In this document: positions 1,069 to 18,610 of the stretch, in pieces
How the letters are laid out: the number at the start of each line of letters is the position of its first letter
Numbering within the stretch: position 1 is the first letter of the stretch
Origin: a virus
Reading direction: 5' to 3' (one strand)
IMG/VR virus record: IMGVR_UViG_3300008108_000181
Coordinates: 17,197-81,196 of that record
DNA length: 64,000 nt
Made by a program: the position numbers and the translations under genes
Notes under the pieces: model-generated
What the model saw: only the letters and a program-made list of their open reading frames with translations
What the model was told of the DNA's origin: nothing
Database searches by the model: none

Positions 1069-2565
1069 TTATTGTTGTGCCCCACGAGGTGCTGTACCCC
1101 CATCAATTCCAAATCCAGGACCTCTATACTGACCAGGATTTACTTCGATGAACCCTTCACCTGTTGCTGTGGTTTGGAATCCACTACCACCGCCACCGGT
1201 TGAAGTTGGTCCAAATGAACTACCATCTCCTCCTTGTTCTTCACGCGGTGGAGGTGGTGGTGGACTACCAGCTGGTTTTTGTGTTTCTCTAATATCACTT
1301 CCATCTGATGTTTTAAGAGAACCTTCGTAGTATGATAAGGTAAATTTATCATATTCATTAAATTTTTGTAATTGGCCACCTGACGCATTTACATATCTAG
1401 CAGATGAACCATCTTTCCAACCATACCAAGTTTTTGTTACAAGTTCGGTAGTGGGAGTTGGGTTAGCAGTTATTGTAGTGTTGGTTTCAAATACACAACT
1501 ACCATCATCTTCTTTTGCCAGAGGATTGTAGTTTTTAGCATTAGGATTGGTACAACCCCTTACAACAAATTGAGAATTATCAAATGCATCAGTATCATAT
1601 TTGGTACCTGATGTAACTGTTTTTAGAAGTTGTTTTACTTCGTCTAAAGTTATTTGTTCATCTAATGTTAAAATATTCTCTTCTTGATATGTACGCTTCG
1701 GTAGATATTTATCAATTACTTTTATCAAAATTGAATTTAAAGTTTCAACAATTTTTTCAACTGAAAGTTCTAAATCTCTTGGTGTGGAAAGTGGTTTCCC
1801 ATAATTGTTAGATGAAATGTTCCAGTCTCTATTTTCTACAAAGTATTGAGCACCTTCTACTAATTTTTCTTTAATTTGATTTACAAACAATTCCCAATTT
1901 TGTACTTTGAATTCCGATTGAATTAATTTAACATAATTTTCACCAGATGTAACTGTACCATTTAATGTTAAAAATGTTTTTAATACATCATCAACTTTAA
2001 TTGATTCTACCATAGATTTTACAAAATAAATGGTATCATCTCTAAAATTTTTACCATTTAATAAAATATCTAATCTTTTTTGTAAATCATCATAAACTAT
2101 TTCGTTTTCATCTTCCATTGGGAGAATACGAATTTCAGTACGAGATGGTGATATTTCATGAATCCATAATTTATCTTTATCAACCGTTTCAGAACCAACT
2201 CTTCGGTTTAATAAAGAAACTTGACTTTTAAAAATACCATTAGAATATCCGGCTTCAGTAATAAGTTTTTCTATATCAATAATATACTCATCTGCACCAT
2301 TCATTTTCATGTTTGATGGATTTTGAGTAATTAAAAAGTATTTTCTAATATTTTCTACATCTAAAGGAATGTATCTAACTAATTGTCCTGAATCACCTTG
2401 TGGTAATTGATTATCGTTTGAATCATAAACAATAAATTCAATCATATCAGATATACCAAGACCAAAGTATGATTTACCAATTTCTCTTTCAAAAATGGTT
2501 CTATCTTTAGCGTTTACTCTAAACCCTTTTTTATCGATTATCTCTTTGAATCCTCTTATTGCCAT
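1069..2565 (-). CDS. Hypothetical virion-associated protein with one GCT...NYNP...DDGSC repeat unit
   Basis: 498-aa ORF; GCTNPNAKNYNPLAKEDDGSC motif; Pro/Gly-rich tail. Confidence 0.7.
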   Translation of the reverse strand: MAIRGFKEIIDKKGFRVNAKDRTIFEREIGKSYFGLGISDMIEFIVYDSNDNQLPQGDSGQLVRYIPLDVENIRKYFLITQNPSNMKMNGADEYIIDIEKLITEAGYSNGIFKSQVSLLNRRVGSETVDKDKLWIHEISPSRTEIRILPMEDENEIVYDDLQKRLDILLNGKNFRDDTIYFVKSMVESIKVDDVLKTFLTLNGTVTSGENYVKLIQSEFKVQNWELFVNQIKEKLVEGAQYFVENRDWNISSNNYGKPLSTPRDLELSVEKIVETLNSILIKVIDKYLPKRTYQEENILTLDEQITLDEVKQLLKTVTSGTKYDTDAFDNSQFVVRGCTNPNAKNYNPLAKEDDGSCVFETNTTITANPTPTTELVTKTWYGWKDGSSARYVNASGGQLQKFNEYDKFTLSYYEGSLKTSDGSDIRETQKPAGSPPPPPPREEQGGDGSSFGPTSTGGGGSGFQTTATGEGFIEVNPGQYRGPGFGIDGGTAPRGAQQ

Positions 2566-3599
2566 GATACTTGTTTGTTCTTATTTGCAAACACTTTATA
2601 TACTAAAATTGAAAACTTCTCACCGAATTTGTGTAAGAATTTTCCCTTATAATTTTGTTTTGGTAAAACACCCATTTCGTATGCCATGTATTCTGACCAA
2701 TCTTTAACAAAATAATTGTAAACGAATTTAGAAAAAGATTTAGATGTTTTTAATCTATTGACAATTGGTTGTGCCCAAATCCAATATCCATACATAACTT
2801 CAGGATTTTTCTGAAGTACAATATCACCGAATTTAGAATCCATGTCGTAAATGAATTGTGGCATAAATCCTTGATTATACATTTCAGTACAAATGATAGT
2901 ACCTCTTCCTTCACTATTTCGTTCATTGAGTGCATTAGCAGCATCTGCAAAGTTATTTTGTGCAGCAACTAAATTATCTTGAATTGTTGCAATAGTGTTA
3001 TTTGCTCTATCGATTGTACTTTTTGATTCCTCTTGGAGTGCTATAAATGCTTCCTTTTCTGCAAGTAATCCTTGTAACGATGCTTCTCTCGATACTCGTT
3101 CTATAGCTTCTTTTACACCTTTAGAAAGTGCAGATTGTAAATCTAATGTTACTGATTGTAGTACTTGGTTTGTAGCATCTCTTTCGTTTTCTGCAGATGA
3201 TTTTAATAATTTTTGTAAATCTATATCAATTTGTAATTGTTCTATATCAGTTCTAAGTGATTCGTTTTCTACAAGTAATTGATCTACTTGTTCTTGTAAA
3301 TCTTGTATATCAAGAAGAGCTCGATTATACAATCTTCGTAAATCATCATAAATTGTTTTTAGTACAACTGCAGGTGCTTCTACTCGTGGAGGACCTATTA
3401 ATTCATCTACAACGGTATCAACTGCTTTTACAAGTTGTTCATTATTGTAAACGGGTCTTTCAACATATCCAAATGTAGAACCATCAGTATCTACTGAAGT
3501 ATCTGATAAAATAATACCTTCAGGAGTCACCTCTTGTTTTAATGCAGCCGAACCACTTTTTATAAGTTCTGATAATATAAATTCGTTACTTAATGCCAT
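2556..3599 (-). CDS. Coiled-coil protein with C-terminal IICTEMY domain
   Basis: Long heptad-rich middle; C-terminal GRGTIICTEMYNQG...GYWIWAQPIV segment. Confidence 0.7.
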   Translation of the reverse strand: MALSNEFILSELIKSGSAALKQEVTPEGIILSDTSVDTDGSTFGYVERPVYNNEQLVKAVDTVVDELIGPPRVEAPAVVLKTIYDDLRRLYNRALLDIQDLQEQVDQLLVENESLRTDIEQLQIDIDLQKLLKSSAENERDATNQVLQSVTLDLQSALSKGVKEAIERVSREASLQGLLAEKEAFIALQEESKSTIDRANNTIATIQDNLVAAQNNFADAANALNERNSEGRGTIICTEMYNQGFMPQFIYDMDSKFGDIVLQKNPEVMYGYWIWAQPIVNRLKTSKSFSKFVYNYFVKDWSEYMAYEMGVLPKQNYKGKFLHKFGEKFSILVYKVFANKNKQVSWQ

Positions 3600-4660
3600 T
3601 ATTTTTCTACTAAGAATGTTAAATCTCTATCTGAGAAGTATTCTATTACACCATCTCTATCTATTTTTATTTCAATATAGTATTCTCTATTAGTTTGCCA
3701 ATTTTGTAAATTTAACTTAAAAAAGTTACCATTGGAATCACAACTAACTTTTGAATAATCACCAAATGGTATAATTACATCATCAGTAACGATATCCTTT
3801 ATTTGATAATAGGTTGTTGATGGTAAGTATTTTAAATCAGTATATGTATAAAAATTAGTATAAGTTTTTAATGGATATTTTTCTCTACCAAATACTCTAA
3901 TTTCAGGTTTACTACCAATTTTATATTTACTTTTTAATCGTTTAAATGTCACATGGATATCATCAGATGTAAGTTCTGTAAGTGAACCAGTTGTGAAAAT
4001 AGAATCGTCCCATCCAACTCTTAATTTTGGTTGGTATATTGTATTTGTTTCTTTGGAAAAGAATTTTAATTGACCATAATCATTTGCATCATTTTCTAAT
4101 GAAGAATCGTATTTTATAATAAATCCATTATTTGGAAGTGAACCACTTAACCATAATTCGATTGTATTTTTTACATCGATTGATAAATCTGCAGTCTGAT
4201 ATTCAAATGATTGTGTTGCCTGAGATGCAGTATACCAAGTTCCTCCTCTACCATTATAAGAACCAGTTGAATCCAATGATAACGAATCTGCCATTAACCA
4301 ATTCGTATTAGTAGATTTGTGATTCCATGTTATACCATCACCCGAAATCTCATCAAAACGAGTTCCAATTCCCATTTCCCAAGATTGAGAAACCGGGTAG
4401 GCATATATTGTATATGATAATGGTATTTCAGATGCTTCGGCTTCATGTAAAATAAGGTCAACCGAACTCATTGTTACGTGTCCACTCACTATTGATGATG
4501 AAAGATTATTCAAATCAAACTGAATGAATGTACGAGCAACATCTTTTAGATTTCCATAATAAGTTTTAGAAACTTCTAATATTTCATCTAATCCAGTATT
4601 CTGGGTTGGTTGTTGTAAATATATTGATGCATCTTTTGATGCTGTTAAAAAATAATACAT
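3599..4660 (-). CDS. Structural protein, DNRLRE-like beta-rich domain (tentative)
   Basis: KDASIY...NTG...RTFIQFDL...W...G.TW...NNGFII...PKL pattern; overlaps the stop of the wedge gene. Confidence 0.5.
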   Translation of the reverse strand: MYYFLTASKDASIYLQQPTQNTGLDEILEVSKTYYGNLKDVARTFIQFDLNNLSSSIVSGHVTMSSVDLILHEAEASEIPLSYTIYAYPVSQSWEMGIGTRFDEISGDGITWNHKSTNTNWLMADSLSLDSTGSYNGRGGTWYTASQATQSFEYQTADLSIDVKNTIELWLSGSLPNNGFIIKYDSSLENDANDYGQLKFFSKETNTIYQPKLRVGWDDSIFTTGSLTELTSDDIHVTFKRLKSKYKIGSKPEIRVFGREKYPLKTYTNFYTYTDLKYLPSTTYYQIKDIVTDDVIIPFGDYSKVSCDSNGNFFKLNLQNWQTNREYYIEIKIDRDGVIEYFSDRDLTFLVEK

Positions 4661-7113: not shown

Positions 7114-7749
7114 TTACTTATTGAACCTCTTAACTAATTGAGAGTAATCTCGGTTTAATGCTTTATCTAATGCTTCGTTTCCAGTTTTGACACCCAAACC
7201 ACCTCGTTGAGCACCGCCACCAAAATCACCATAACCCATTTTCTCTGCCATTTGATTTCTCATAGCACCCAAACCTACTTGTGCAGTTACTGGATTATTA
7301 AATGTAAATGTTTCATCAATATCAGGTTCTGCATCCATATAAGAAGGAACATAAGATGCTACTTCTTGAATGGGTTGTTGGTATGTATCTAAAATTGAAG
7401 TACCACCACCAAGACCACTTCTTTGAGCAGAACTAAATGGTTGTGTTTGATTTAGTATTTCATTCAATACCGGATTTTTTGTAAACTCTTTTGTTGGTTT
7501 ATTTTGAGTTTGTTGTCTTTCTTTTTGTAAGACAGATTCTGCAAGAGCAAAAGGGTCTAATTCTTTTGTTTTAGTTGTAGTTTGAATCGGAGTTTTACTT
7601 TTTGTTTCTTTTAAAAGTTTTACCATTTTGGCATTAACTTCTTCTTCCAAAATTTTTGGAAAAATTTTAGTTAGAAAATGTTCTTGTTTTTTAGCAACTT
7701 CCGCTTCTACAATTACTTGAATTAACTTTGCTAATTTTTTACTATCCAT
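7114..7749 (-). CDS. Hypothetical phage protein
   Basis: 211-aa ORF heading the baseplate transcription unit; late-type motif at 7772-7779. Confidence 0.7.
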   Translation of the reverse strand: MDSKKLAKLIQVIVEAEVAKKQEHFLTKIFPKILEEEVNAKMVKLLKETKSKTPIQTTTKTKELDPFALAESVLQKERQQTQNKPTKEFTKNPVLNEILNQTQPFSSAQRSGLGGGTSILDTYQQPIQEVASYVPSYMDAEPDIDETFTFNNPVTAQVGLGAMRNQMAEKMGYGDFGGGAQRGGLGVKTGNEALDKALNRDYSQLVKRFNK

Positions 7750-7807
7750 TTTTATTCGGTTTTATTCTTTATATAAATATACCTTTTATGGATTTTGTAT
7801 TCTAAAT

Positions 7808-7834
7808 AAAAAAAGGGAGTTTTCACTCCCTTTT
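7808..7834 (-). terminator. Intrinsic terminator after the lipoprotein gene
   Basis: Minus strand GGGAGT-GAAA-ACTCCC followed by a T run. Confidence 0.85.
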
Positions 7835-7837
7835 AAT

Positions 7838-9034
7838 TTAATTACCTTTAGATGGGAACCTAGTCCATCCATTACTCCAAATTGGTTTATCTAATTCAGG
7901 TATTACCACATCTATCTCCTTATTGCTCTTTGAAAGTGCTAGAGTTTTCAATTGGTCATTAGTTAGGATTGTAGTTGCCTTACTGATAAAGTTTAAGGTA
8001 GGATTAAATGTTCCTACTGAATTGTTTTCAAATACTGAAACTCCATCTTTTACAAATCCTGCAGTTTCATTACTTTCCAAACTCAAACCACCTTTCATCC
8101 AACCCCACACAATACTGTTCTTCATTGTGAATTGAGTTGCTCTCCTAAATCTCAAACCTAAATTGTGATTTGCTAATGCAGTAGATACATTAGGTCCAAC
8201 TAAAATCATATTGTAAAGTTTCGGATGTGTGTATGGTTGTGCAGGTGAACCCGTTCCATCGTTATCACATTCAACACCATTTCCAGCATCACCACTATCT
8301 ACGAATTGTGGGTCTCTCTTTGCTACACCATTTGTAATTGTTCCAGTATATCCAAAATCAAAATCAAAATCATCATCTGCGGTTGCGAATGCGTATAGAT
8401 TTCTTGCAGATACTGTTCCACCAAAGAATTCAAATGCATCATCGTTAGCGTAGATAGTTTGAACATTCTCAACGATTGTTCCACTACCAACTCCACCCAA
8501 TGTTAGTGCATTGATTTCTGAGTTTGGAAGTGCAGCAATACCTGCGTATTCAATTCTTACAAAACGAAGAACACCACTATTATCTAAATCGTTTGTTCCT
8601 CCATAAGGTCTACCAATACCACCTTCAATAGTTGGTTCTGATGTTCTATTGGTTTTTGCTCTACCCAATATCACAATACCACCCCAATCTCCAGGTGCTC
8701 TTTCTCCAACTGCTTTACCTGAAGTAAATACGATTGGTTTTGTTGCAGTTCCTTCTGCTACAATTTGTGCTCCTCTTTCAATTACCAATGCACCTTTCTC
8801 ACTTATATCGGATACGATTGTAGTTCCAGGTTGAATAATTAGTTTTGCTCCATCGGTTACATATACATAACCTTTCAATGTCCAAACTTTATCCGCAGTT
8901 AAAGTTGTTGTTGTGTTTATGTTACCGGAAATTGTTGTAGTTGATGGAATGTTAATTGGTCCATCACCTCCACCCAATTCGGTTTCACAACTTAATAATC
9001 CGAATGCTAAAATAGCTACTAATAGTTTTTTCAT
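7838..9034 (-). CDS. Outer-membrane lipoprotein partner of the TonB-dependent receptor (likely beta-helix)
   Basis: Lipobox LLSC; PIVFTS...PGDWGGIVILGRA, DNSGVLRFVRIEYAG, DDAFEFFGG, DDDFDFDFGY motifs. Confidence 0.85.
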   Translation of the reverse strand: MKKLLVAILAFGLLSCETELGGGDGPINIPSTTTISGNINTTTTLTADKVWTLKGYVYVTDGAKLIIQPGTTIVSDISEKGALVIERGAQIVAEGTATKPIVFTSGKAVGERAPGDWGGIVILGRAKTNRTSEPTIEGGIGRPYGGTNDLDNSGVLRFVRIEYAGIAALPNSEINALTLGGVGSGTIVENVQTIYANDDAFEFFGGTVSARNLYAFATADDDFDFDFGYTGTITNGVAKRDPQFVDSGDAGNGVECDNDGTGSPAQPYTHPKLYNMILVGPNVSTALANHNLGLRFRRATQFTMKNSIVWGWMKGGLSLESNETAGFVKDGVSVFENNSVGTFNPTLNFISKATTILTNDQLKTLALSKSNKEIDVVIPELDKPIWSNGWTRFPSKGN

Positions 9035-11508
9035 AGTGTTAAATTTAGTGTTAATGAAACTGTTTGTTCGTTGTTTGTTTTAATTAAATCTCTGTTTTGT
9101 AACTTTTGGTAAAAGATTGATGATTGAGCAAATACATCACCTATTGCCAATTTTAATTCTCCCTTTGGAAGTTTGTATAAGAATGTAATATCTAATACAT
9201 CTCTACTATTTTCAAAGATGTCAGGATACCCCTGAAATCCTACTGCTGATATTCTATCTCCAACCCTATTATAGGTTATATTAAGGGTTTCATTCTTTTT
9301 GTGTATATTCACCCCACCGTTTAACACATAGGTTGACTGTCCTTGTAATTGTCTTTTAACACCATTCACTTCAACTTCGGAATTCATTACCGATGTATTT
9401 GCGTATATATCAAACCAACCATTTATCTTTTTTCTTGCTTCCAATTCAACACCATATAGGATAGCTGAATTTGGATTGGTGTAGGTTAGAAGGAGGTTAG
9501 ATGGAACCGAACCATCTGCTACAATTTGTTCTATTGGATTGATAAAGTTTTTACCAAATAGGGAAATGGAAATGTTCTCACCTGTATTCGGATACCATTC
9601 GTATTTAAGGTCAGCATTGTATATATCAGTTTTCTCTAAATTAGAGTTACCCAATAGTTGTGCGTTTCTAACAAAATCATAATACGCAAAATTTGCTACT
9701 TCTCTGAACTCTGGTCTTACTAATGTTTTACTTAATGAAAATCTATACTTTGTTTTTTCTTCGTTATATGAAAGGTTTAGGGATGGTAGTATATCCAAAT
9801 ACTCTCTATCTACATTTACTTTCTGTCCACTAAAATCTGCGGTTTGGACATCAAATAAATTGTACTCACCTCTTAATCCAGTGTTTAGTTTCCACTTACC
9901 AAATTCGGTATCATACATTGTGTATAACGAACCCAAATCAAAATCTGCCGTGTATCTATCAGTATTGTTTGTTATCTCATCTAACATATCATTTGATACA
10001 TAACGAAATACTCTAGCATTAAATCCTCGCATCTTTTTTAGGTAACCACCACCTACTTTAATCTTACCAAACTCTTTGTTGATATTACCATTCAAAGAGT
10101 TCTCATCCATCACACTCCAAAAACGATATGTATCTCTCCACGCAGTTTGATATGGTTCATCTACCCCCAATGATTTTGTAATTGGATTAACTCTATAATC
10201 GGGTTGTTCTCTGAAGGTGTATGTGTATCCTAAATTGAAATCCCAAGTCTTAACCTTACCATCTAATTGAGAACTGATTACAACATTGTTAATATGATTT
10301 GATGCCGTAGATAAAACATTCTGCACGTTATCAAAGTTATCACCAGTACGAGTTAGGTATGTATCATCGGTTTGGTAGTTCACTAATGTTTTCCAACTAT
10401 ATCTATTCTCACCCAAATAAGTCAAATTGAATAAACCATTTGTTGAAAATCTTTTTGTGAATAGAACATCTTTGTAATCATAAGCCAATTCGGTTGATGA
10501 TTGGTAATCCTTTCTATCAATGTTATTTATTGTAAATGAGTTCCTTACGGTAGAACTGAATAAGGAGTTCCATTTTCCGTTTACATATCCGAATGATACA
10601 CCACCATTTAAGTTCTGAATAGATTGGATTGTTTCAGTTGATGGATTACCAAATAGTTTAGTGTAAGCTCTCTTATCACCATTACCACTAATTCGGTATT
10701 TGTATGTGGATGGGAATGTGGAGGGGAAATCGGTAGCTTGAACTAACTTAAAATCTCTAAAAGTTGAAACCGAACCCCAACCACTTCCCGATGATATATT
10801 AAAAAAGTTATCAGATACTTCTTTAGTTGTTATCTGAACCAATCCACCTGCCCAATCACCTGGTAGATTTGCCGATGCTGATTTAGCAACTATTATGTTA
10901 TCAATTAGTGATGTGGGGATTATATCAAATGAGAATGCTCTCCTATCGGGTTCGGTTGATGGTAGTGGGGTTTTGTTTAGTAGTGCCGAATTATATCTAT
11001 CTGCTAATCCTCTTACTAATACAAACTTATCGTTTTGTATTGTTACACCACTTACTCTTTTAAGAGCATCTCCAACATTTCTATCGGGTGTCTTTTTGAT
11101 AAATTCTATGGATAATCCATCTGATACAACATTACTATTTCGTATTGATTTAACAATAGTTATATCATTTACTTTTTGGGATACACCTTGAACAATAACT
11201 TCTGATAAATCAGTAGCATCATCTGGGAATATAATATCGAATTCAGTATCGGTATCGAATACCACTTCGTTTGTGTATTCTTTGTATCCAACAAATGAAG
11301 ATTTTATTTGATACTTTCCGTTTTCTAATTGAATTAAATACTTACCATCGGTATCGGAAAGTGTTGTAAAAATACCACCCTTATCATTTATAAAAGAAAT
11401 ATGAGAAAAGTAAAGTGTTTCGGATTTTGATTTTGTAGTTCCCTTTATTGTTACTTGCGAAAACAATAAATTGGGTAGTAATAAAAGTATTAGTAAAAAC
11501 CTTTTCAT
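9031..11508 (-). CDS. TonB-dependent outer-membrane receptor (Bacteroidota type)
   Basis: Signal peptide, CarboxypepD_reg-like N-domain, plug motif DALKRVSGVT...VRGLADRYN, barrel motifs RPEFRE and GNSNL, terminal amphipathic beta strand. Confidence 0.92.
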   Translation of the reverse strand: MKRFLLILLLLPNLLFSQVTIKGTTKSKSETLYFSHISFINDKGGIFTTLSDTDGKYLIQLENGKYQIKSSFVGYKEYTNEVVFDTDTEFDIIFPDDATDLSEVIVQGVSQKVNDITIVKSIRNSNVVSDGLSIEFIKKTPDRNVGDALKRVSGVTIQNDKFVLVRGLADRYNSALLNKTPLPSTEPDRRAFSFDIIPTSLIDNIIVAKSASANLPGDWAGGLVQITTKEVSDNFFNISSGSGWGSVSTFRDFKLVQATDFPSTFPSTYKYRISGNGDKRAYTKLFGNPSTETIQSIQNLNGGVSFGYVNGKWNSLFSSTVRNSFTINNIDRKDYQSSTELAYDYKDVLFTKRFSTNGLFNLTYLGENRYSWKTLVNYQTDDTYLTRTGDNFDNVQNVLSTASNHINNVVISSQLDGKVKTWDFNLGYTYTFREQPDYRVNPITKSLGVDEPYQTAWRDTYRFWSVMDENSLNGNINKEFGKIKVGGGYLKKMRGFNARVFRYVSNDMLDEITNNTDRYTADFDLGSLYTMYDTEFGKWKLNTGLRGEYNLFDVQTADFSGQKVNVDREYLDILPSLNLSYNEEKTKYRFSLSKTLVRPEFREVANFAYYDFVRNAQLLGNSNLEKTDIYNADLKYEWYPNTGENISISLFGKNFINPIEQIVADGSVPSNLLLTYTNPNSAILYGVELEARKKINGWFDIYANTSVMNSEVEVNGVKRQLQGQSTYVLNGGVNIHKKNETLNITYNRVGDRISAVGFQGYPDIFENSRDVLDITFLYKLPKGELKLAIGDVFAQSSIFYQKLQNRDLIKTNNEQTVSLTLNLTL

Positions 11509-11605: not shown

Positions 11606-12592
11606 TTATTTGTATCTAAAAAGTGCAGCTTCTTCTCTTCTTCTTCTAATTAATCCTGTATAAACTTTACCATCTTCTGCTCCTTTACTTGGACCATTTT
11701 CAATACCTACTGCAGCTTCCTCAAACTTACCAGCTTTTATATTATCGATTATATCTGGATAATAGTAGAAACTTCCACAATTATACGCAAAAGATACTAA
11801 TCCTGCTTTTTGTGTTTTAGTTAACGCATCAAAAGTTTCTTTTGGCATCTGATAAATCCTTCCTTGCGGATTTTTAGCATTACCTACTACTTTATAATAA
11901 AATGTATTTCTAACTTGATATTGTAAAACTAACATAGCATCTTCTTTGGTAGTTGTATCACCATATTGTACTGTTCTAGTTGTCCAAGGATTTGCTTTTA
12001 CTAATAGCATCGATGTACCATAGCCTAATCGTGGATTTCCTTGGTCATTTCTAGCAGTATCACGAAATGATTCTTTCCTAGCAATATATTGAGCTGCAAT
12101 AACATCCCATGTTGCACCAAAATCTATTTTGGTTAAACTTGGTTCAGTACCTGCTGGGAAATTAGATGTACCAGTGTTTGTTGGAGTATTGGATTCTTGT
12201 TTAACTTCAGTTGATTTTACTTTAACCAAATCAGTTGCTGTAGAATTAAAACCGTTTCCACCGAGTCCTGCACTTGTACTACCATCGGTTTCCAATCGAG
12301 TTTCGTTCCATTCTTTATTCACAATCGGGTCAGTTTCTAATTCAACTTGAACCGAAACAATAGTATTATCATATTGTGGCTCAGGTGGTGTTTGCATTGG
12401 AACTTCAGGGCCGCCAGCCCCACTTGGTGGTATAGTATAACCTGTCCAAGTTTTAAATCCCGGCAATGGTAGTGGTGACGGCATTATAGTACCAATGGTG
12501 ATATAAATACCACCTACTGTTTGTAAATGTAATTGCATTTGAGTAATTAACTGGTTTAAAAACACTTCACTATTATCAGTTGGTCTTGCCAT
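11606..12592 (-). CDS. Baseplate-associated protein with C-terminal GH24 (phage) lysozyme
   Basis: KESFRDTARNDQGNPRLGYG, LVSFAYNCG, GLIRRRREEAALF. Confidence 0.85.
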   Translation of the reverse strand: MARPTDNSEVFLNQLITQMQLHLQTVGGIYITIGTIMPSPLPLPGFKTWTGYTIPPSGAGGPEVPMQTPPEPQYDNTIVSVQVELETDPIVNKEWNETRLETDGSTSAGLGGNGFNSTATDLVKVKSTEVKQESNTPTNTGTSNFPAGTEPSLTKIDFGATWDVIAAQYIARKESFRDTARNDQGNPRLGYGTSMLLVKANPWTTRTVQYGDTTTKEDAMLVLQYQVRNTFYYKVVGNAKNPQGRIYQMPKETFDALTKTQKAGLVSFAYNCGSFYYYPDIIDNIKAGKFEEAAVGIENGPSKGAEDGKVYTGLIRRRREEAALFRYK

Positions 12593-12598
12593 ATCTTA

Positions 12599-13534
12599 TT
12601 ATCCTCCCTTTTGTGATTCAACTGCAGCTATACCATTTTCATTTAATCTCCAAAGAGCAACTGTATTAAAATCAACACCGCTTGTTTGAACCTTACCTTG
12701 AGTGAAATCACTAACCCAAGCAAATCCGGTCCAAACTTGTATGTGACCGTATCTTTTTGATTTATATCCCTGTGCAATCACATCTCCAACTTGCCATTTT
12801 GTAGAGTCTTTAATCCACTCTTCATCTACCTTGACCTTATTGTGATAATATGTGGTACCCCCAACATCAATTGCAAAAGAAGAGGCACCAGTTGAGTTAG
12901 TATCAGTACCGGGACTTTTAAACGAAAACCAATCTGCATGCCCTCGTATTGTACCAAGTTCATTTTTACCAGTCAGTGCAGCAACTACTGCTTGAGTACC
13001 TTGTGGACATAATCCATGTATATCTTGAATATAACCTCTTCTTAAATTTTCATATTTTACTCGTGGATTCTTACCAAGTTTTGGTGCAAGACTCCCTGCA
13101 ATTTGTAATAATTTATCTAAAGTACGATATCCACTTTTTACCTCTTTAGAATCAACTATTTCTTTTAATCCTTGTTCTTCAACTGCATCATCAATTATTT
13201 GTGTTTTAACATTATTTAATTGAGTTGCTGCTGATTTTTCCAAATCAGTAACAGCTTTGGCATCAATTATTTTTTGTTGTATTTTTTCAGAATTTGGATT
13301 TATAATTTCTTGAACCTCTGGATCATTTTTATCTAATGAAACTCTACTCCAATCTAATTTTTGATAAACATCATAATTAATAGGGTCTGGGTCAAGTGGG
13401 GTTTCCAATGTCACATCCGATGGAGTCCATACACCCGAATTTGTTGTAAAGTTAGATATTTGTGAAATGTGCACAAAAACTCCAAGTGGTGTTATTGATG
13501 GAATTGGTGGTGGAAATAATCGCATTGTTGCCAT
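12599..13534 (-). CDS. Baseplate-associated protein with C-terminal CHAP/NlpC-P60-like cysteine peptidase
   Basis: GLCPQGTQ (Cys), QVGDVI, YGHIQVWTGFAWVSDFTQ (His/Asp). Confidence 0.75.
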   Translation of the reverse strand: MATMRLFPPPIPSITPLGVFVHISQISNFTTNSGVWTPSDVTLETPLDPDPINYDVYQKLDWSRVSLDKNDPEVQEIINPNSEKIQQKIIDAKAVTDLEKSAATQLNNVKTQIIDDAVEEQGLKEIVDSKEVKSGYRTLDKLLQIAGSLAPKLGKNPRVKYENLRRGYIQDIHGLCPQGTQAVVAALTGKNELGTIRGHADWFSFKSPGTDTNSTGASSFAIDVGGTTYYHNKVKVDEEWIKDSTKWQVGDVIAQGYKSKRYGHIQVWTGFAWVSDFTQGKVQTSGVDFNTVALWRLNENGIAAVESQKGG

Positions 13535-13546
13535 AATTCTATATCT

Positions 13547-14650
13547 TTATTCGTAAATTGAAACGTGCATAGGGTCATTTCTTTTTAACCATGTCATTCC
13601 TACTGATTGAAAAATGCTGGCTACTTGTAAAAAACCCTTATCAAAATCGTTAAAACTTCTTACTTTAGTGTTTCCTTTGTATATACCATCATCTTTAAAT
13701 GATACTCCATATGGATATCGTACACTATTCATGTCAATAGCAGTTCCCCATGCATGGTTTGATAATCGAGTACCACCAGTAACATTTCTAACTGCTAGAC
13801 CACCTGCACAATTTTCTATATATTTTTGTAATTTTTTTTCTCTGATTACTTTTAGAGCAGGTTCAACTATTGCAGCTAAATCTTTATGAATTGTTATTTT
13901 TTTATCACCACTCGATATCGGAAACAATATTTGTGTACAATTTGTTTTAATATAATCAGGGTTTTGTTTATACCAACGGCGAGTACCTTCAGTACTTGAA
14001 ACTTCAAAGTTAGGAGCAGGACCAGGACCAATTGCTGGCCAATAACCATTACCACACTTTTCTAATAATTTGAAATCACCACCAGTACCAGTTGTAGTAG
14101 TTGGTCCAGTTTGAGTAGAACCTCCAGTATCCGAAGATTGTTGTCCTGAATTAGATTGTTGTATTTCTCGTTGATTTGAAAAAACTTGTTCTCTATCCAC
14201 ATTTTTATTATGAGATAATGCTGCAGATGTACTACTAAATTGACTTTCGTATATTCTTTGAGTTTTTGGATACTCTATTGTTATATCTTTCTGAATTGTT
14301 TCAGCCTCTTCTACTTCTTCAGCAGTGAATAATTCTATAATTTGTTGAAGAAGTGAACCTCCCCCTGAAATCGGAGTCCAATATGCTTGAAAAGCTTTAC
14401 CCATGTTGGTAATGATAGCATGTTCACCGGATGATTGTTGAAATGCAGTATTCAAAACTCCACCCAATACTTGTTCCATTGCTGCAGTATTTCCTTCTTG
14501 AAGAGTTATTCCATTTACAGTATCAAACCCTCTTTTAATTAATGCATCATATTCTTGTACTAATTTTTTAGCAAATTGTTCTTTAAATGCTATATTTGGT
14601 TGGTTTCGCATAAAAACCAACATATTTTGTTTAAAGATTTCGTATGACAT
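13547..14650 (-). CDS. Baseplate-associated protein with C-terminal M15 family zinc peptidase
   Basis: R..TGGTRLSNHAWGTAIDMN and DPMHV zinc-ligand motifs. Confidence 0.85.
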   Translation of the reverse strand: MSYEIFKQNMLVFMRNQPNIAFKEQFAKKLVQEYDALIKRGFDTVNGITLQEGNTAAMEQVLGGVLNTAFQQSSGEHAIITNMGKAFQAYWTPISGGGSLLQQIIELFTAEEVEEAETIQKDITIEYPKTQRIYESQFSSTSAALSHNKNVDREQVFSNQREIQQSNSGQQSSDTGGSTQTGPTTTTGTGGDFKLLEKCGNGYWPAIGPGPAPNFEVSSTEGTRRWYKQNPDYIKTNCTQILFPISSGDKKITIHKDLAAIVEPALKVIREKKLQKYIENCAGGLAVRNVTGGTRLSNHAWGTAIDMNSVRYPYGVSFKDDGIYKGNTKVRSFNDFDKGFLQVASIFQSVGMTWLKRNDPMHVSIYE

Positions 14651-14651
14651 T

Positions 14652-15887
14652 TTATTCAGTATAATTTAAAGTAGATAACATTTCTGATAACCTTGCTTTT
14701 AAAGAATTTAATTGTGCCCTATTTTCAGGACCTGTTGCAGTTGGACCAGATGGAGTTCGATATACTTGTGAGTTAATCAAATCAATCATAGTAGATAAAA
14801 TTTCTTTTAGAATATTACCCCTAACTAATGGTTGGGACGAACTATTAGTGTTTAACAATATTTTACCACTACCTGTATTTAGTGTAATGTTAGAATTACT
14901 TCGGGATGTGGTTATATTTACATTACCACCAAAATCTAAATCTGCACCAAGACCGTTATCAATTGAAAATTTACCATCAGATATAAATCCATAATCGCCT
15001 TTTGAATGAAACACCATTTGACCTGTCTTTGCAGAAATTATAATTTTACCACTATTGATTAGTAAATGGTCATCACCCTTGAGCGGATTTGGGTATGAGG
15101 AAAATTTACTTGGAGTGATAGATGTTGTTGCAGTAAATGGTATTTGGTAATCCCCACTTGATAAAACAATAACACTACCATCACTATTCACATTTTCTTC
15201 AGTTATATCACCTTCTTTTAATGATGATATAGTTTGTGAATCTTGTCTATTACGAATTATTATAGTTGGTGAATATACATTATTTGCATTGTTATATGCA
15301 CTAAATCTGATTGATTGACCAAATCTGGTTTGTATCAATTTATCACCTTCGTATAATTTTAATCTATTTATTGGATTTGACCTAAAATACTTTCCAAAAT
15401 CACTTGTTTCAGAAGTTTCATTCGCAGTATTTCCAAGTGGAGTTCCTGTCTGTGCCGATTCTTTTATAGATGCATCAACTGCAATTTTTTCTTTTTTATC
15501 GTAAATTACATCAGCTCTTTTTTTAATAGCATTTCCAGTATTCAATGAAAATCCTGGTATTCTTCTATAATATTCAATCGAACCGACCATTACCAATTCA
15601 ACTGATTCTCCAATTACTGGTAATTCAGTATCCGATGGATTTAGACATGGATACATATTTAATTGTTCGTTTGGAGTTGTACTATCTGAATATTTTCGTA
15701 CTATAGCATAACCTACAAAAGTTGTATTTTTTTCTGTAAATGCCGTTTGAAAATCTTTTTTGTTTTTTATTCTTGGGTGGGTCTCATCCAAAATTACATC
15801 AACAACAACACCAGTACTTGTGGATGCAATTGCAGTTTGTTTATTAGTACCACTCGATATATTTGATTGTTGTATTCTAGTACTCAT
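14652..15887 (-). CDS. Baseplate hub/central spike-like protein (gp5/VgrG-like)
   Basis: OB-fold-like LPVIGESV, EGDKLIQTRFGQSIRF, beta-rich C-terminus, QPLVRG...TPSGPT; baseplate context. Confidence 0.7.
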   Translation of the reverse strand: MSTRIQQSNISSGTNKQTAIASTSTGVVVDVILDETHPRIKNKKDFQTAFTEKNTTFVGYAIVRKYSDSTTPNEQLNMYPCLNPSDTELPVIGESVELVMVGSIEYYRRIPGFSLNTGNAIKKRADVIYDKKEKIAVDASIKESAQTGTPLGNTANETSETSDFGKYFRSNPINRLKLYEGDKLIQTRFGQSIRFSAYNNANNVYSPTIIIRNRQDSQTISSLKEGDITEENVNSDGSVIVLSSGDYQIPFTATTSITPSKFSSYPNPLKGDDHLLINSGKIIISAKTGQMVFHSKGDYGFISDGKFSIDNGLGADLDFGGNVNITTSRSNSNITLNTGSGKILLNTNSSSQPLVRGNILKEILSTMIDLINSQVYRTPSGPTATGPENRAQLNSLKARLSEMLSTLNYTE

Positions 15888-16891: not shown

Positions 16892-18610
16892 TTATATTAT
16901 CTTTTTTCGAACTATATAATTGTGTAATACTAAAGTATCCATTTCACAATTCAAAAATGTTTTAACTGCAGTTTCTGGGTCTAACACCATAGTTTGATCT
17001 TTTAAGTTAAATGAAGTGTTGAGGACAATTGGATAACCATTATCTATTTCCAATTGATTTAACAATCTATACATTCGTGATTGTTGTCTATTATTCAATG
17101 TTTGAATTCTTGCAGAACCATCAATGTGAGTAATTGCTGGTAAATTCTTTCTATGTTCTTCTTTCACTTTCACTACTTGATTCATATATGGAACCAAATG
17201 TTTATAATCAAAGTACTTTAATCGTTCTTCTTCTTTTATAATTGGTGCAAATGGTCTAAACCCTTCTCTTTTTTTAATTACACGATTTACTCGTGCTTTC
17301 ATTTGTGGGTCTCTTGGATTAGCCAAAATAGAACGATTCCCAAGGGCTCGAGAACCAAATTCCATTCTCCCCTCGAACCAACCAATGACATTTCCATCAG
17401 TAATTTCTCTACTGATGATTGGAATAATTTCTGAATGATTTTTATATTCATACCAAACTTCATTTTCGTGTTTATCTAATACTTCTTTTATTTTTTCATT
17501 TGTATACGAAGGCCCCAAATAAGGATTTGTATTTACTACTCTATTTTTGTTATTTAATTGATTATACCAATAATAAAGAGCAGAACCAATAGCAGAACCA
17601 GCATCAGATGGTGCAGGTGGAATCCACAATCCCTTGAATGGTGTCATATCGGTAATCTTCCCATTTGCAGTTCCATTGTATGCACACCCACCACTCAGAC
17701 AAACATTATTAGCAGGTCTTAATGCAATTGCACGATTTAATAATCTAAAAAAATAATGTTCGTACTCGTGTTGTAATGTTGCAGCTAAATCTTTATGGTC
17801 TTGTGTAATTTCCTCATCGGGTAATCTATTAGGGAATCCAAACAACTCTCCCAATTTCTCGTTAAACATAGATTTATCATCCCAATCATAGGTAAAATAA
17901 TCCATATTGATTTTATATCCACCATCATCGGTAGATGAAATCAAATGAGAAAATTTAGATAAATATTTTTTGTAATCACCATACGGTGCAAGACCCATTA
18001 CTTTGTATTCACCTTCATTTGGTTTGAATCCAAGAAATGCGGTAAATACTGAGTATAACATTCCTAAAGAATGTGGGAACTCTACACTTTGAAGTTTAAT
18101 TATTCTATTCTCTTCACCATAAGCAATTACGGTAGTTTCCCACTCACCTACCCCATCTACCGAAACAATCATTGCTCTCTCGTAGGGTGATGTATAGAAT
18201 GAATATGCTAAATGTGAGAGGTGGTGTTCGGTGTGAAACAATTCTGAATTAGGAAATAATTTCTTAATCTTTTTTTCTACCTTTTTGTATTCTTGTTTAT
18301 TATTGTAGATAATTTTTTGTCTATTAATTTCATTAACGAACCCACCACGTTTTGTAGATTTTTCAATTCTATCAATTTTCAATTCGGGTAGTTCATAAAA
18401 AGTAACTACATTAATATCGTTAGGAGTAATTCCTTCGTTTTCTAATAACCAAGTTATAGTATTAATTGGAAATGAAGAATCATGCTTTATACCAGTAAAT
18501 CTTTCCTCTTCAACTGCACCTACAACCTCACCATTTTTAATGAGAGCAGCAGCAGAATCATGATAACCAGAACTTATTCCTAAAATATAAAAATTATTCA
18601 CTTTCATCAA
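16892..18610 (-). CDS. O-carbamoyltransferase (NodU/CmcH/TobZ family)
   Basis: HDSAAAL..EEERF, EHHLSH, DGVGE, EYKVMGLAPYG, EFGSRALGNRSILA, KREGFRPFAP, HIDGSARIQT, LNTSFN. Confidence 0.95.
   Translation of the reverse strand: MMKVNNFYILGISSGYHDSAAALIKNGEVVGAVEEERFTGIKHDSSFPINTITWLLENEGITPNDINVVTFYELPELKIDRIEKSTKRGGFVNEINRQKIIYNNKQEYKKVEKKIKKLFPNSELFHTEHHLSHLAYSFYTSPYERAMIVSVDGVGEWETTVIAYGEENRIIKLQSVEFPHSLGMLYSVFTAFLGFKPNEGEYKVMGLAPYGDYKKYLSKFSHLISSTDDGGYKINMDYFTYDWDDKSMFNEKLGELFGFPNRLPDEEITQDHKDLAATLQHEYEHYFFRLLNRAIALRPANNVCLSGGCAYNGTANGKITDMTPFKGLWIPPAPSDAGSAIGSALYYWYNQLNNKNRVVNTNPYLGPSYTNEKIKEVLDKHENEVWYEYKNHSEIIPIISREITDGNVIGWFEGRMEFGSRALGNRSILANPRDPQMKARVNRVIKKREGFRPFAPIIKEEERLKYFDYKHLVPYMNQVVKVKEEHRKNLPAITHIDGSARIQTLNNRQQSRMYRLLNQLEIDNGYPIVLNTSFNLKDQTMVLDPETAVKTFLNCEMDTLVLHNYIVRKKII

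Follow-up and report, generated by a model that had tools for sequence, protein, structure and literature searches.

Sequence evidence for a phage carrier domain split among three tandem genes, each with a different peptidoglycan hydrolase-type domain

The genes for T4 gp5 and other virion-associated peptidoglycan hydrolases lie in the baseplate/spike module; the tail tip delivers the proteins, which combine long linkers with modular enzymes. In tail-associated lysins, which as a group are one of the two closest precedents for the present case, the polypeptide that contains the enzyme is the spike, the tape-measure protein, or Tal, or else one chain bears several enzyme domains. Here we describe a locus in a 64,000-nucleotide (nt) stretch of viral DNA (positions 17,197 to 81,196 of IMG/VR record IMGVR_UViG_3300008108_000181; this whole stretch is called the window) where, unlike in those lysins, a separate and unannotated carrier domain appears to hold the enzymes and to be divided among three polypeptides, P1, P2, and P3. 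Their N-terminal carrier pieces are designated N1, N2, and N3. The source is an 81-kb viral record with a CheckV completeness of ~46%, and its coding is almost wholly on the minus strand.

The other close precedent is a set of phage genes that are split in two and whose products reassemble, namely, Aeh1 nrdA (mobE), T4 39/60 (mobA), and Aeromonas phage 43A/43B (PMC2988022). As in the cases covered by the cited passages, coding sequence that relatives keep in one piece is distributed here over separate polypeptides, and we infer that these also reassemble. The genes in those passages encode enzymes and were split two ways, the interruption being either a homing endonuclease gene or an insert that is not translated, with no function gained as far as the passages describe. 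In contrast to what is described there, the present locus divides a small structural domain three ways, with gaps of 6 to 12 nt, no endonuclease open reading frame (ORF), and a new enzyme on each piece.

A previous reading of the DNA alone (the sequence-only reading) had reported three tandem hydrolase-type ORFs downstream of a spike-like gene. The ORF list placed them at the reported coordinates on the minus strand, and the lengths of the N-terminal segments also agreed with that description. The features are as follows (lengths in amino acids [aa]).

Central-spike-like ORF: 14652-15887, minus strand; 411 aa, immediately upstream, 1 nt before P1.
P1: 13547-14650, minus strand; 367 aa, carrier piece 1, a long linker, and an M15_4 zinc peptidase.
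P2: 12599-13534, minus strand; 311 aa, carrier piece 2, a linker, and a possible Tae3/CHAP-like cysteine amidase (weak support).
P3: 11606-12592, minus strand; 328 aa, carrier piece 3, a linker, and a GH24 lysozyme.
N1 (P1 residues 1-92): 14375-14650, minus strand; carrier profile positions 1-92, hmmsearch E value of 2.1e-20.
N2 (P2 residues 1-40): 13415-13534, minus strand; carrier profile positions 94-130, E value of 0.059.
N3 (P3 residues 1-57): 12422-12592, minus strand; carrier profile positions 133-187, hmmsearch E value of 3.2e-10.
Peptidase_M15_4 domain of P1 (residues 291-364): 13559-13780, minus strand; from Pfam.
Papain-like (Tae3/Amidase_6/CHAP-like) cargo of P2 (residues ~136-311): 12602-13129, minus strand; from profile A6 against the PDB.
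Phage_lysozyme (GH24) domain of P3 (residues 173-321): 11630-12076, minus strand; from Pfam.

To describe the carrier, we used a profile of ~187 to 188 positions made from 19 contiguous proteins of 185 to 204 aa, with no split members. N1, N2, and N3 tiled this profile collinearly and without overlap: P1 residues 1-92 matched positions 1-92 (E = 2e-20), P2 residues 2-40 matched positions 94-130 (E = 0.059), and P3 residues 3-55 matched positions 133-187 (E = 3e-10). The weak middle match is secured because N1 continues directly, in the relatives L011 and L005, into a protein 56 to 62% identical to the entire P2, and because an N2-only profile, made from 29 relatives with the window's clade left out, scored P2 residues 2-43 at an E value of 4.7e-13 (runner-up, 1.2, among 473 window ORFs). 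The sequence-only reading had proposed that the three segments join into one domain and had pointed to a single contiguous domain in related large phages. Collinear profile matches of all three segments bore out the first claim, and the second is now a database result: in four loci, the whole carrier is one ORF at the same place, directly after the spike homologue (190 aa in L013 and 188 aa in L014-16), with a start that matches the P1 N terminus and an end that matches the P3 N terminus.

The cuts are exact. P1 departs from the carrier straight after an invariant Tyr-Trp of helix 5, P2 starts with a Met that substitutes for the next carrier residue, and P3 starts a few residues ahead of the conserved helix of the last third. 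Residues conserved in the unsplit forms were retained in the split N1, N2, and N3 (alignments A2-A4); in N3 (alignment A4), P4, H22, L23, G28, G45, G51, and Y52 were invariant in split and unsplit forms. This retention suggests purifying selection on the carrier pieces. At the level of sequence comparison, we regard it as established that a single carrier domain has been divided among three genes, each of which also bears an enzyme.

Split genes might also be nonfunctional remnants of a carrier gene, but apart from the interruption itself, nothing pointed that way. The ORFs were intact, the family motifs were present, conserved residues were kept in every piece, and the three-gene arrangement was kept in 9 other contigs of two clades. 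Among sequencing runs, which were searched as Logan contigs, 16 contained half or more of the words sampled from the stretch (lake, freshwater, and "fungus" metagenome labels, 2017 to 2025), and 6 of these are possibly the source; the RNA runs listed contained at most 0.09 of the sampled words. Contigs of four runs from four studies covered the stretch without indels. Decay is thus hardly credible as an explanation.

The carrier proved to be a large family without a name. Searches of 1.84 billion representatives of 50% identity clusters gave 482 clusters at an E value of ≤0.001, 307 at ≤1e-10, and 140 at ≤1e-30. Pfam and PHROG gave no match to the carrier, cluster look-ups gave no names, and none of 113 relatives of the unsplit carrier in a word-indexed collection had a Pfam domain or an informative name. 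The carrier profile had a best E value of 0.71 against the PDB, and tblastn of the unsplit carrier against 50,697 GenBank phage records gave no match. Searches of the main texts in one open-access full-text library found no description of the carrier family or of a split lysin anchor.

Among 256 carrier proteins, 130 consisted of the full carrier with a C-terminal extension and 44 were stand-alone carriers; positions 1 to ~131-139 were followed by a long extension in 42 and lacked one in 10. A further 10 had two matched stretches, 5 had an N-terminal extension, and 15 were other forms, mostly truncated. The commonest class among the carrier proteins examined (P0016-P0097; ~274 to 295 aa) carried a C-terminal extension of ~100 residues, and P0067, the single member of this class that was scanned, had no Pfam or PHROG match.

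We also read architectures from DNA, under code 11. A scan of IMG/VR with the spike-like protein and P1 gave 27 loci, and 64 locus rows were compared in all. Two contigs appear twice among these rows (L003 = L018 and L004 = L017), many others are near identical, and the locus queries favored particular architectures; the following class frequencies are accordingly not population frequencies. Four rows were unsplit, 2 were unsplit with C-terminal cargo, 31 were two-gene splits at about position 131 (L037-L053 among them), 11 were three-gene splits at 92 and ~131, 11 were single ORFs with an in-frame insertion near ~130 or ~114, and 5 were cut by contig ends. The three-gene class includes L055-L060, with a strong N2 match (E = 5e-14), and L029, whose label was assigned by hand and whose N2 ORF was detected by blastp alone (E = 3.4e-09). 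Among the insertion forms, L030-L036 are single ORFs of 710 to 733 aa composed of N1N2, an insert of ~255 aa, N3, and a tail of ~260 aa; in L062 and L064-66, the insert follows about carrier position 114. No Pfam match was found in the inserts and tails of five single-ORF insertion forms that were scanned (P0184, P0228, P0237, L030, and L062; the class spans about 484 to 733 aa), and these inserts may be unrecognized cargo types.

All 64 rows were collinear with the carrier. At least 175 of the 188 profile positions were covered in 56 rows; the remaining 8 comprised the 5 contig-end cases and 3 insertion forms that covered 169 to 170. No orphan carrier fragment was found away from contig ends in any of the rows. 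Pieces free of cargo also persist, as a 104-aa N1-only ORF in L055 and a 109-aa N2 ORF with only a Thr/Pro-rich tail in L029.

An AlphaFold2 (AF2) model of the unsplit carrier, computed from 20 unsplit sequences, gave a confident single domain (predicted local distance difference test score [pLDDT], 84.9; predicted template modeling score [pTM], 0.81). Residues 1-91 form five helices, followed by a strand (113-122), another helix (138-153), and two further strands (157-164 and 177-182). In this model, both breaks fall in loops, break 1 just past helix 79-91 and break 2 between strand 113-122 and helix 138-153. N1 would thus hold five helices, N2 one 10-residue strand, and N3 one helix and two strands; as judged from the DSSP string, the only possible sheet partners of the N2 strand would be the two N3 strands.

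We consider it likely that noncovalent fragment complementation mounts the three hydrolases on one reassembled carrier at the spike/baseplate. In the proposed scheme, an unsplit carrier gene would have been broken at two surface loops, after positions 92 and ~131. A flexible linker of 100 to 190 residues and an enzyme would have been added at each break and at the C terminus, with the next piece restarting at its own ATG. The N1 helical bundle, the N2 strand, and the N3 helix and two strands would refold into an alpha/beta carrier of ~187 residues. This reassembled carrier would occupy the usual site in the spike/baseplate complex, and the three enzymes (metallopeptidase, cysteine amidase, and muramidase) would be tethered close to one another at the point of contact between tail and cell wall.

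The sequence-only reading had proposed such complementation and had suggested modeling of the three-fragment complex. We predicted N1, N2, and N3 as three chains, with the window's own fragments and a 32-row alignment for each as input. The interface score (ipSAE) was 0.56, 0.57, and 0.65 in the three runs (median, 0.57), and the best of 3 controls reached 0.01; at least 79% of contacts were shared between runs, with a partner pLDDT of at least 62. Among 80 solved complexes, 58 reach the ipSAE mark, as do 2 of 110 mismatched pairs; just 7 of the 80, along with both of the passing mismatches, do so at an ipSAE of ≤0.60. These calibration counts hold only roughly, as custom alignments were used; no like complex has been solved. 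The prediction gives weak support to reassembly. Of the earlier proposal, then, the split scaffold with three enzymes stands on comparative evidence, and physical reassembly of the fragments is the best-supported mechanism for it.

Independent docking would account for the same genes in another way: each piece might be a separate spike/baseplate adaptor, or N1 alone might serve as the anchor, with N2 and N3 as leftover leaders. The self-contained five-helix N1 unit of the model, the N1-only ORF of L055, and the weak pass of the three-chain prediction would all fit this. However, N2, with ~40 residues and a single strand, could not be expected to fold alone, and both N2 and N3 retain residues that are invariant in unsplit forms. 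The pieces always occur together and in order, insertion forms hold N1N2 and N3 in one chain, and the unsplit model is one compact domain. We consider independent docking unlikely.

The sequence-only reading had also raised splicing, bypassing, or recombination at W-T-P sites as a means of selecting which enzyme is attached, and readthrough could likewise join the pieces. P1, P2, and P3 do share one frame with short gaps (ALTERNATIVES; TAA plus 12 nt, then TAA TAA plus 3 nt). The P1-P2 gap (13534-13549) is 12 nt, with four sense codons past TAA, and the P2-P3 gap (12592-12601) is 6 nt, with one codon past TAA TAA. Because the frame is shared, readthrough in the window would give a polyprotein like the single-ORF insertion forms of other lineages. 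The first two breaks also have TGGACTCC in common, as had been claimed: its only copies in the window are those at 14373-14380 and 13422-13429. The meaning attached to it was not upheld. With 1.04 copies expected and two or more in 28 of 100 shuffles, TGGACTCC is at chance level; it consists of Trp-Thr-Pro codons, with W-T lying within conserved carrier motifs, and is therefore not evidence of anything.

Other features of the junctions argued against recoding. The frame relation was not conserved, with 18 of 53 interpiece gaps, or about one third, in frame across loci; in the other three-split clade, the gaps were 10 to 12 and 4 nt and out of frame. A double stop lies at the P2-P3 junction, and each piece starts at its own ATG at a homologous position. 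No Hint or intein family was found in P1-P3 at an E value of ≤0.01, and a low-complexity linker follows each break. Neither an endonuclease ORF nor a long insert lies between the pieces; the material that separates them is the linker and hydrolase on the preceding piece's polypeptide. Contigs of the four runs bridged both junctions without indels, and none joined the W-T-P sites, although contigs miss rare forms. Joining or enzyme selection by recoding is very improbable.

We traced the history of the split on a tree of 40 distinct spike proteins (the neighboring gene), made by a quick method and rooted at the midpoint. This tree required at least 9 architecture changes, and unsplit forms lay at the base of both large clades. 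The approximately unbiased (AU) test rejected the six three-split rows as a single clade (P = 5e-70), although this grouping was chosen with the tree of the neighboring gene already in view. Three-gene splits occur in at least 2 lineages. The window's N1 was 66 to 76% identical to that of the two-split L005, L006, and L011 and 40 to 41% identical to that of the other three-split clade. The N2 junctions also differed: Met replaces the first N2 residue in the window's clade and is added before N2 in L055 and L056. Both the identities and the junction differences agree with a position-92 cut that either arose separately in the two clades or diverged long ago. The occurrence of in-frame insertions and splits at the same loop suggests easy interconversion through gain or loss of a stop and start, and the one-frame arrangement of P1-P3 fits either an origin from an in-frame insertion form or ready conversion to one.

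The three C termini carry different enzyme-type domains, and their activities are predicted from these. P1 ended in a Peptidase_M15_4 domain (PF13539; E = 1.7e-07; 32.1 bits versus a cutoff of 25), with a His/Asp/His zinc ligand pattern recognized by reading only. P3 ended in a Phage_lysozyme domain (PF00959; E = 5.1e-10; 40.2 bits versus a cutoff of 22.3), the sole PF00959 match in the 81-kb record, and also matched the PHROG 7 endolysin family (E = 3.7e-13). P2 had no Pfam match at an E value of ≤0.01 and, as a single sequence, nothing meaningful in the PDB, but it matched PHROG endolysin family 38472 (E = 7.5e-05). When the P2 cargo was aligned with five relatives (A6), Cys57 and His145 were invariant, and the resulting 6-sequence profile matched PDB entry 4hz9 (E = 0.0033) across a 31-residue segment surrounding the conserved His. 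That entry is described in the cited passage as the Tae3 papain-like peptidoglycan amidase effector (PMC10318531). The L005 and L011 cargos, 56 to 62% identical to that of P2, matched CHAP at an E value of 0.008, and that of L005 also matched Amidase_6 at 0.008, all below the cutoff. Of the domain labels given by the sequence-only reading, M15 for P1 and GH24 for P3 were thus confirmed through Pfam, and CHAP/NlpC-P60 for P2 is plausible but weakly supported.

By blastn and tblastn, the region, P1, and P3 had no match in the 50,697 GenBank phage records. The one exception in this collection was LR745206.1 (L001), a 634-kb uncultured phage that shares just the P2 cargo domain (51% identical) on a different, unrelated N terminus. 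In that genome, a 431-aa amidase (7332-8627) and a 537-aa protein on the opposite strand (12402-14015; M15-like by reading) have in common a short acidic linker motif, spotted by eye, which could point to a further type of lysin anchor or to a signal in the linker.

A Pfam census of 102 cargo-bearing representatives of the carrier family found CHAP in 22; VanY in 11; Phage_lysozyme and M15_4 in 6 each; GH19 in 5; DUF2272, M23, M15_3, and GDSL lipase in 2 each; and three further families in 1 each. The recognized carrier cargo, as classified by these matches, is almost entirely cell wall hydrolases. Cargo is also readily swapped among close relatives. In the window's nearest relatives, whose spikes are 91 to 92% identical, N3 bears GH19 and not GH24; in L022, an M15_4 domain 59% identical to that of P1 is mounted on N3; and in the second three-split clade the cargos are, in the same order, M15_4, CHAP, and GH19. 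Lake metagenome contigs held a strain that departs from the window from P3 codon 36 to 10 nt past the stop, as seen from a joint at 11596-12489 in contig X10 and a loose end in contig X14. The X14 loose end, translated by eye, is an L004-type N3 variant, and the L004 cargo is GH19. These observations fit a co-occurring strain with a swapped P3 cargo.

We lean toward viewing the carrier as a natural platform for plug-in display, with its two surface loops and C terminus as hot spots where lysin cassettes are inserted, are exchanged across positions and strains, and become subunits translated separately through gene fission. One tail-tip site would then recruit a programmable set of 0 to 3 enzymes by three-piece complementation, and the three-way split would apparently have had more than one origin at the same boundaries.

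A virion location of the carrier and its enzymes is suggested by gene order and by a separate endolysin in a complete relative. In the window, the gp25-like and gp6-like wedge genes come after the lysin genes, and a spike homologue preceded the carrier gene in 57 of the 64 locus rows. In 36 of these 57, at most 3 nt separated the carrier start from the spike stop; in the other 21, a stretch of 325 to 972 nt intervened. In two loci (L019, 1734-2645; L056, 884-1459), the intervening stretch holds one coiled-coil-like ORF of 191 to 303 aa, with weak Stathmin and Apolipoprotein matches. Flavobacterium phage immuto, a distant spike match, was also considered; it has no carrier but has a coiled-coil protein where the carrier would be, and its gp115 occupies a place similar to that of the L019 and L056 ORFs.

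The upstream 411-aa protein had no Pfam, PHROG, or PDB sequence match, and its AF2 model was poor (pLDDT, 54.2; pTM, 0.29). Residues ~14-120 of this poor model nevertheless matched the oligonucleotide/oligosaccharide-binding (OB) folds of central spikes at Z scores of 6.0 to 7.6, and 9 of the 11 best VIA rows were of the spike/VgrG type. Matches included the P1 baseplate (9vzk_q; Z = 7.6; root mean square deviation [rmsd], 3.2; 72 aligned), A-1(L) (8kea_D; Z = 7.3), phiKZ (6orj; Z = 6.6), P2 gpV (3qr8; Z = 6.5), and VgrG1 (4uhv; Z = 6.4). The earlier label of a gp5-like spike was moderately supported by the OB-fold matches at Z scores of 6.4 to 7.6, but not by any sequence family match.

P1-P3 might instead be lysis enzymes that act from within, with the carrier as an oligomerization or regulatory domain of endolysins; complementation would then occur, but not at the tail tip. 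This would sit well with the 81-kb record, where no other lysozyme, Amidase_2, or SLT gene was found, and with a virion role that is predicted from genes; the negative says little, because the record is ~46% complete. Against it, the genes sit between the spike-like gene and the wedge genes, and by reading of the ORF list, no holin-like small membrane ORFs are adjacent. Moreover, the complete relative G001 (288 kb, terminal repeats present) encodes a canonical PG_binding_1+GH19 endolysin at a distance of ~158 kb from the carrier genes. The carrier-borne enzymes of G001 are therefore extra to its lysis enzyme. The endolysin is followed by three small ORFs, apparently membrane spanning as judged by reading (L070 [G001:C1:230500-235500], 1856-3602), which together with it are likely a lysis cassette. 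A role for P1-P3 in lysis from within is quite improbable.

Several points weigh against a reassembled carrier at the tail tip. The Z scores behind the spike assignment are middling and come from a poor model, piece-piece binding and virion presence are predictions from genes and models, the 81-kb record yielded no other lysozyme, Amidase_2, or SLT gene, and the enzyme family of P2 is weakly supported. The complex prediction is a weak pass, and N1, as a five-helix unit, might fold and dock alone. Fold searches with the carrier model found nothing in the PDB at an E value of ≤0.001 (Foldseek), a best Z score of 4.7 in a VIA-wide search (noise level; rmsd, 3.9; 117 aligned), and only uncharacterized viral or phage proteins in BFVD and the ESM Atlas.

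Some further features of the neighborhood were recorded. On the coding strand, no terminator-like site was found from the spike gene to the end of P3, and a scan for sigma-70-like promoters was at chance level (25 seen versus 27.1 expected). Just upstream of the spike module is a gene for a Nol-like carbamoyltransferase (572 aa; 16892-18610, minus strand; PHROG 1601, E = 1.6e-114). Between the lysin genes and the wedge genes, a pair of genes is inserted (7838-11508, minus strand) that encodes a TonB-dependent receptor (825 aa; Plug, OMP_b-brl_3, and CarboxypepD_reg) and a 398-aa lipoprotein-like ORF. The pair was 79 to 95% identical in the close relatives L003 and L004, and the other loci retrieved by searching with the spike and with P1 showed no match to it.

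Three other systems bear comparison with a carrier reassembled from three enzyme-bearing pieces. In type VI secretion systems (T6SS), VgrG/PAAR adaptors carry Tae amidase effectors as interchangeable peptidoglycan-degrading cargo. The resemblance of the P2 cargo to Tae3 recalls this kind of spike loading, but the carrier has no homology to PAAR, VgrG, or known adaptors, and T6SS adaptors are whole domains. The branched tailspikes of CBA120 and G7C place several enzymes that differ in specificity on one virion site through conserved N-terminal anchors, with modules swapped between relatives. In those phages, each anchor is a whole domain that attaches to another anchor or to the baseplate, and the enzymes, which are depolymerases, are borne on trimeric spikes. 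In engineered tripartite split proteins, such as split green fluorescent protein (GFP), three fragments fused to different partners rebuild the fold and colocalize the partners. Those proteins are man-made, whereas the arrangement in the window is natural and recurrent in evolution.

If the proposed mechanism is correct, the locus would represent natural tripartite split-domain complementation as an assembly device, an idea so far known mainly from protein engineering. It would imply that gene fission together with domain accretion can turn one structural protein into a multienzyme hub, and the permissive loops and small fragments could serve as tags for enzyme co-display. The large unannotated family of 482 clusters would mark tail-associated lysins in uncultured freshwater and environmental phages and should aid the annotation of virion enzymes. 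For the phages themselves, frequent swapping of cargo between close strains suggests ongoing selection on breaching of the host wall.

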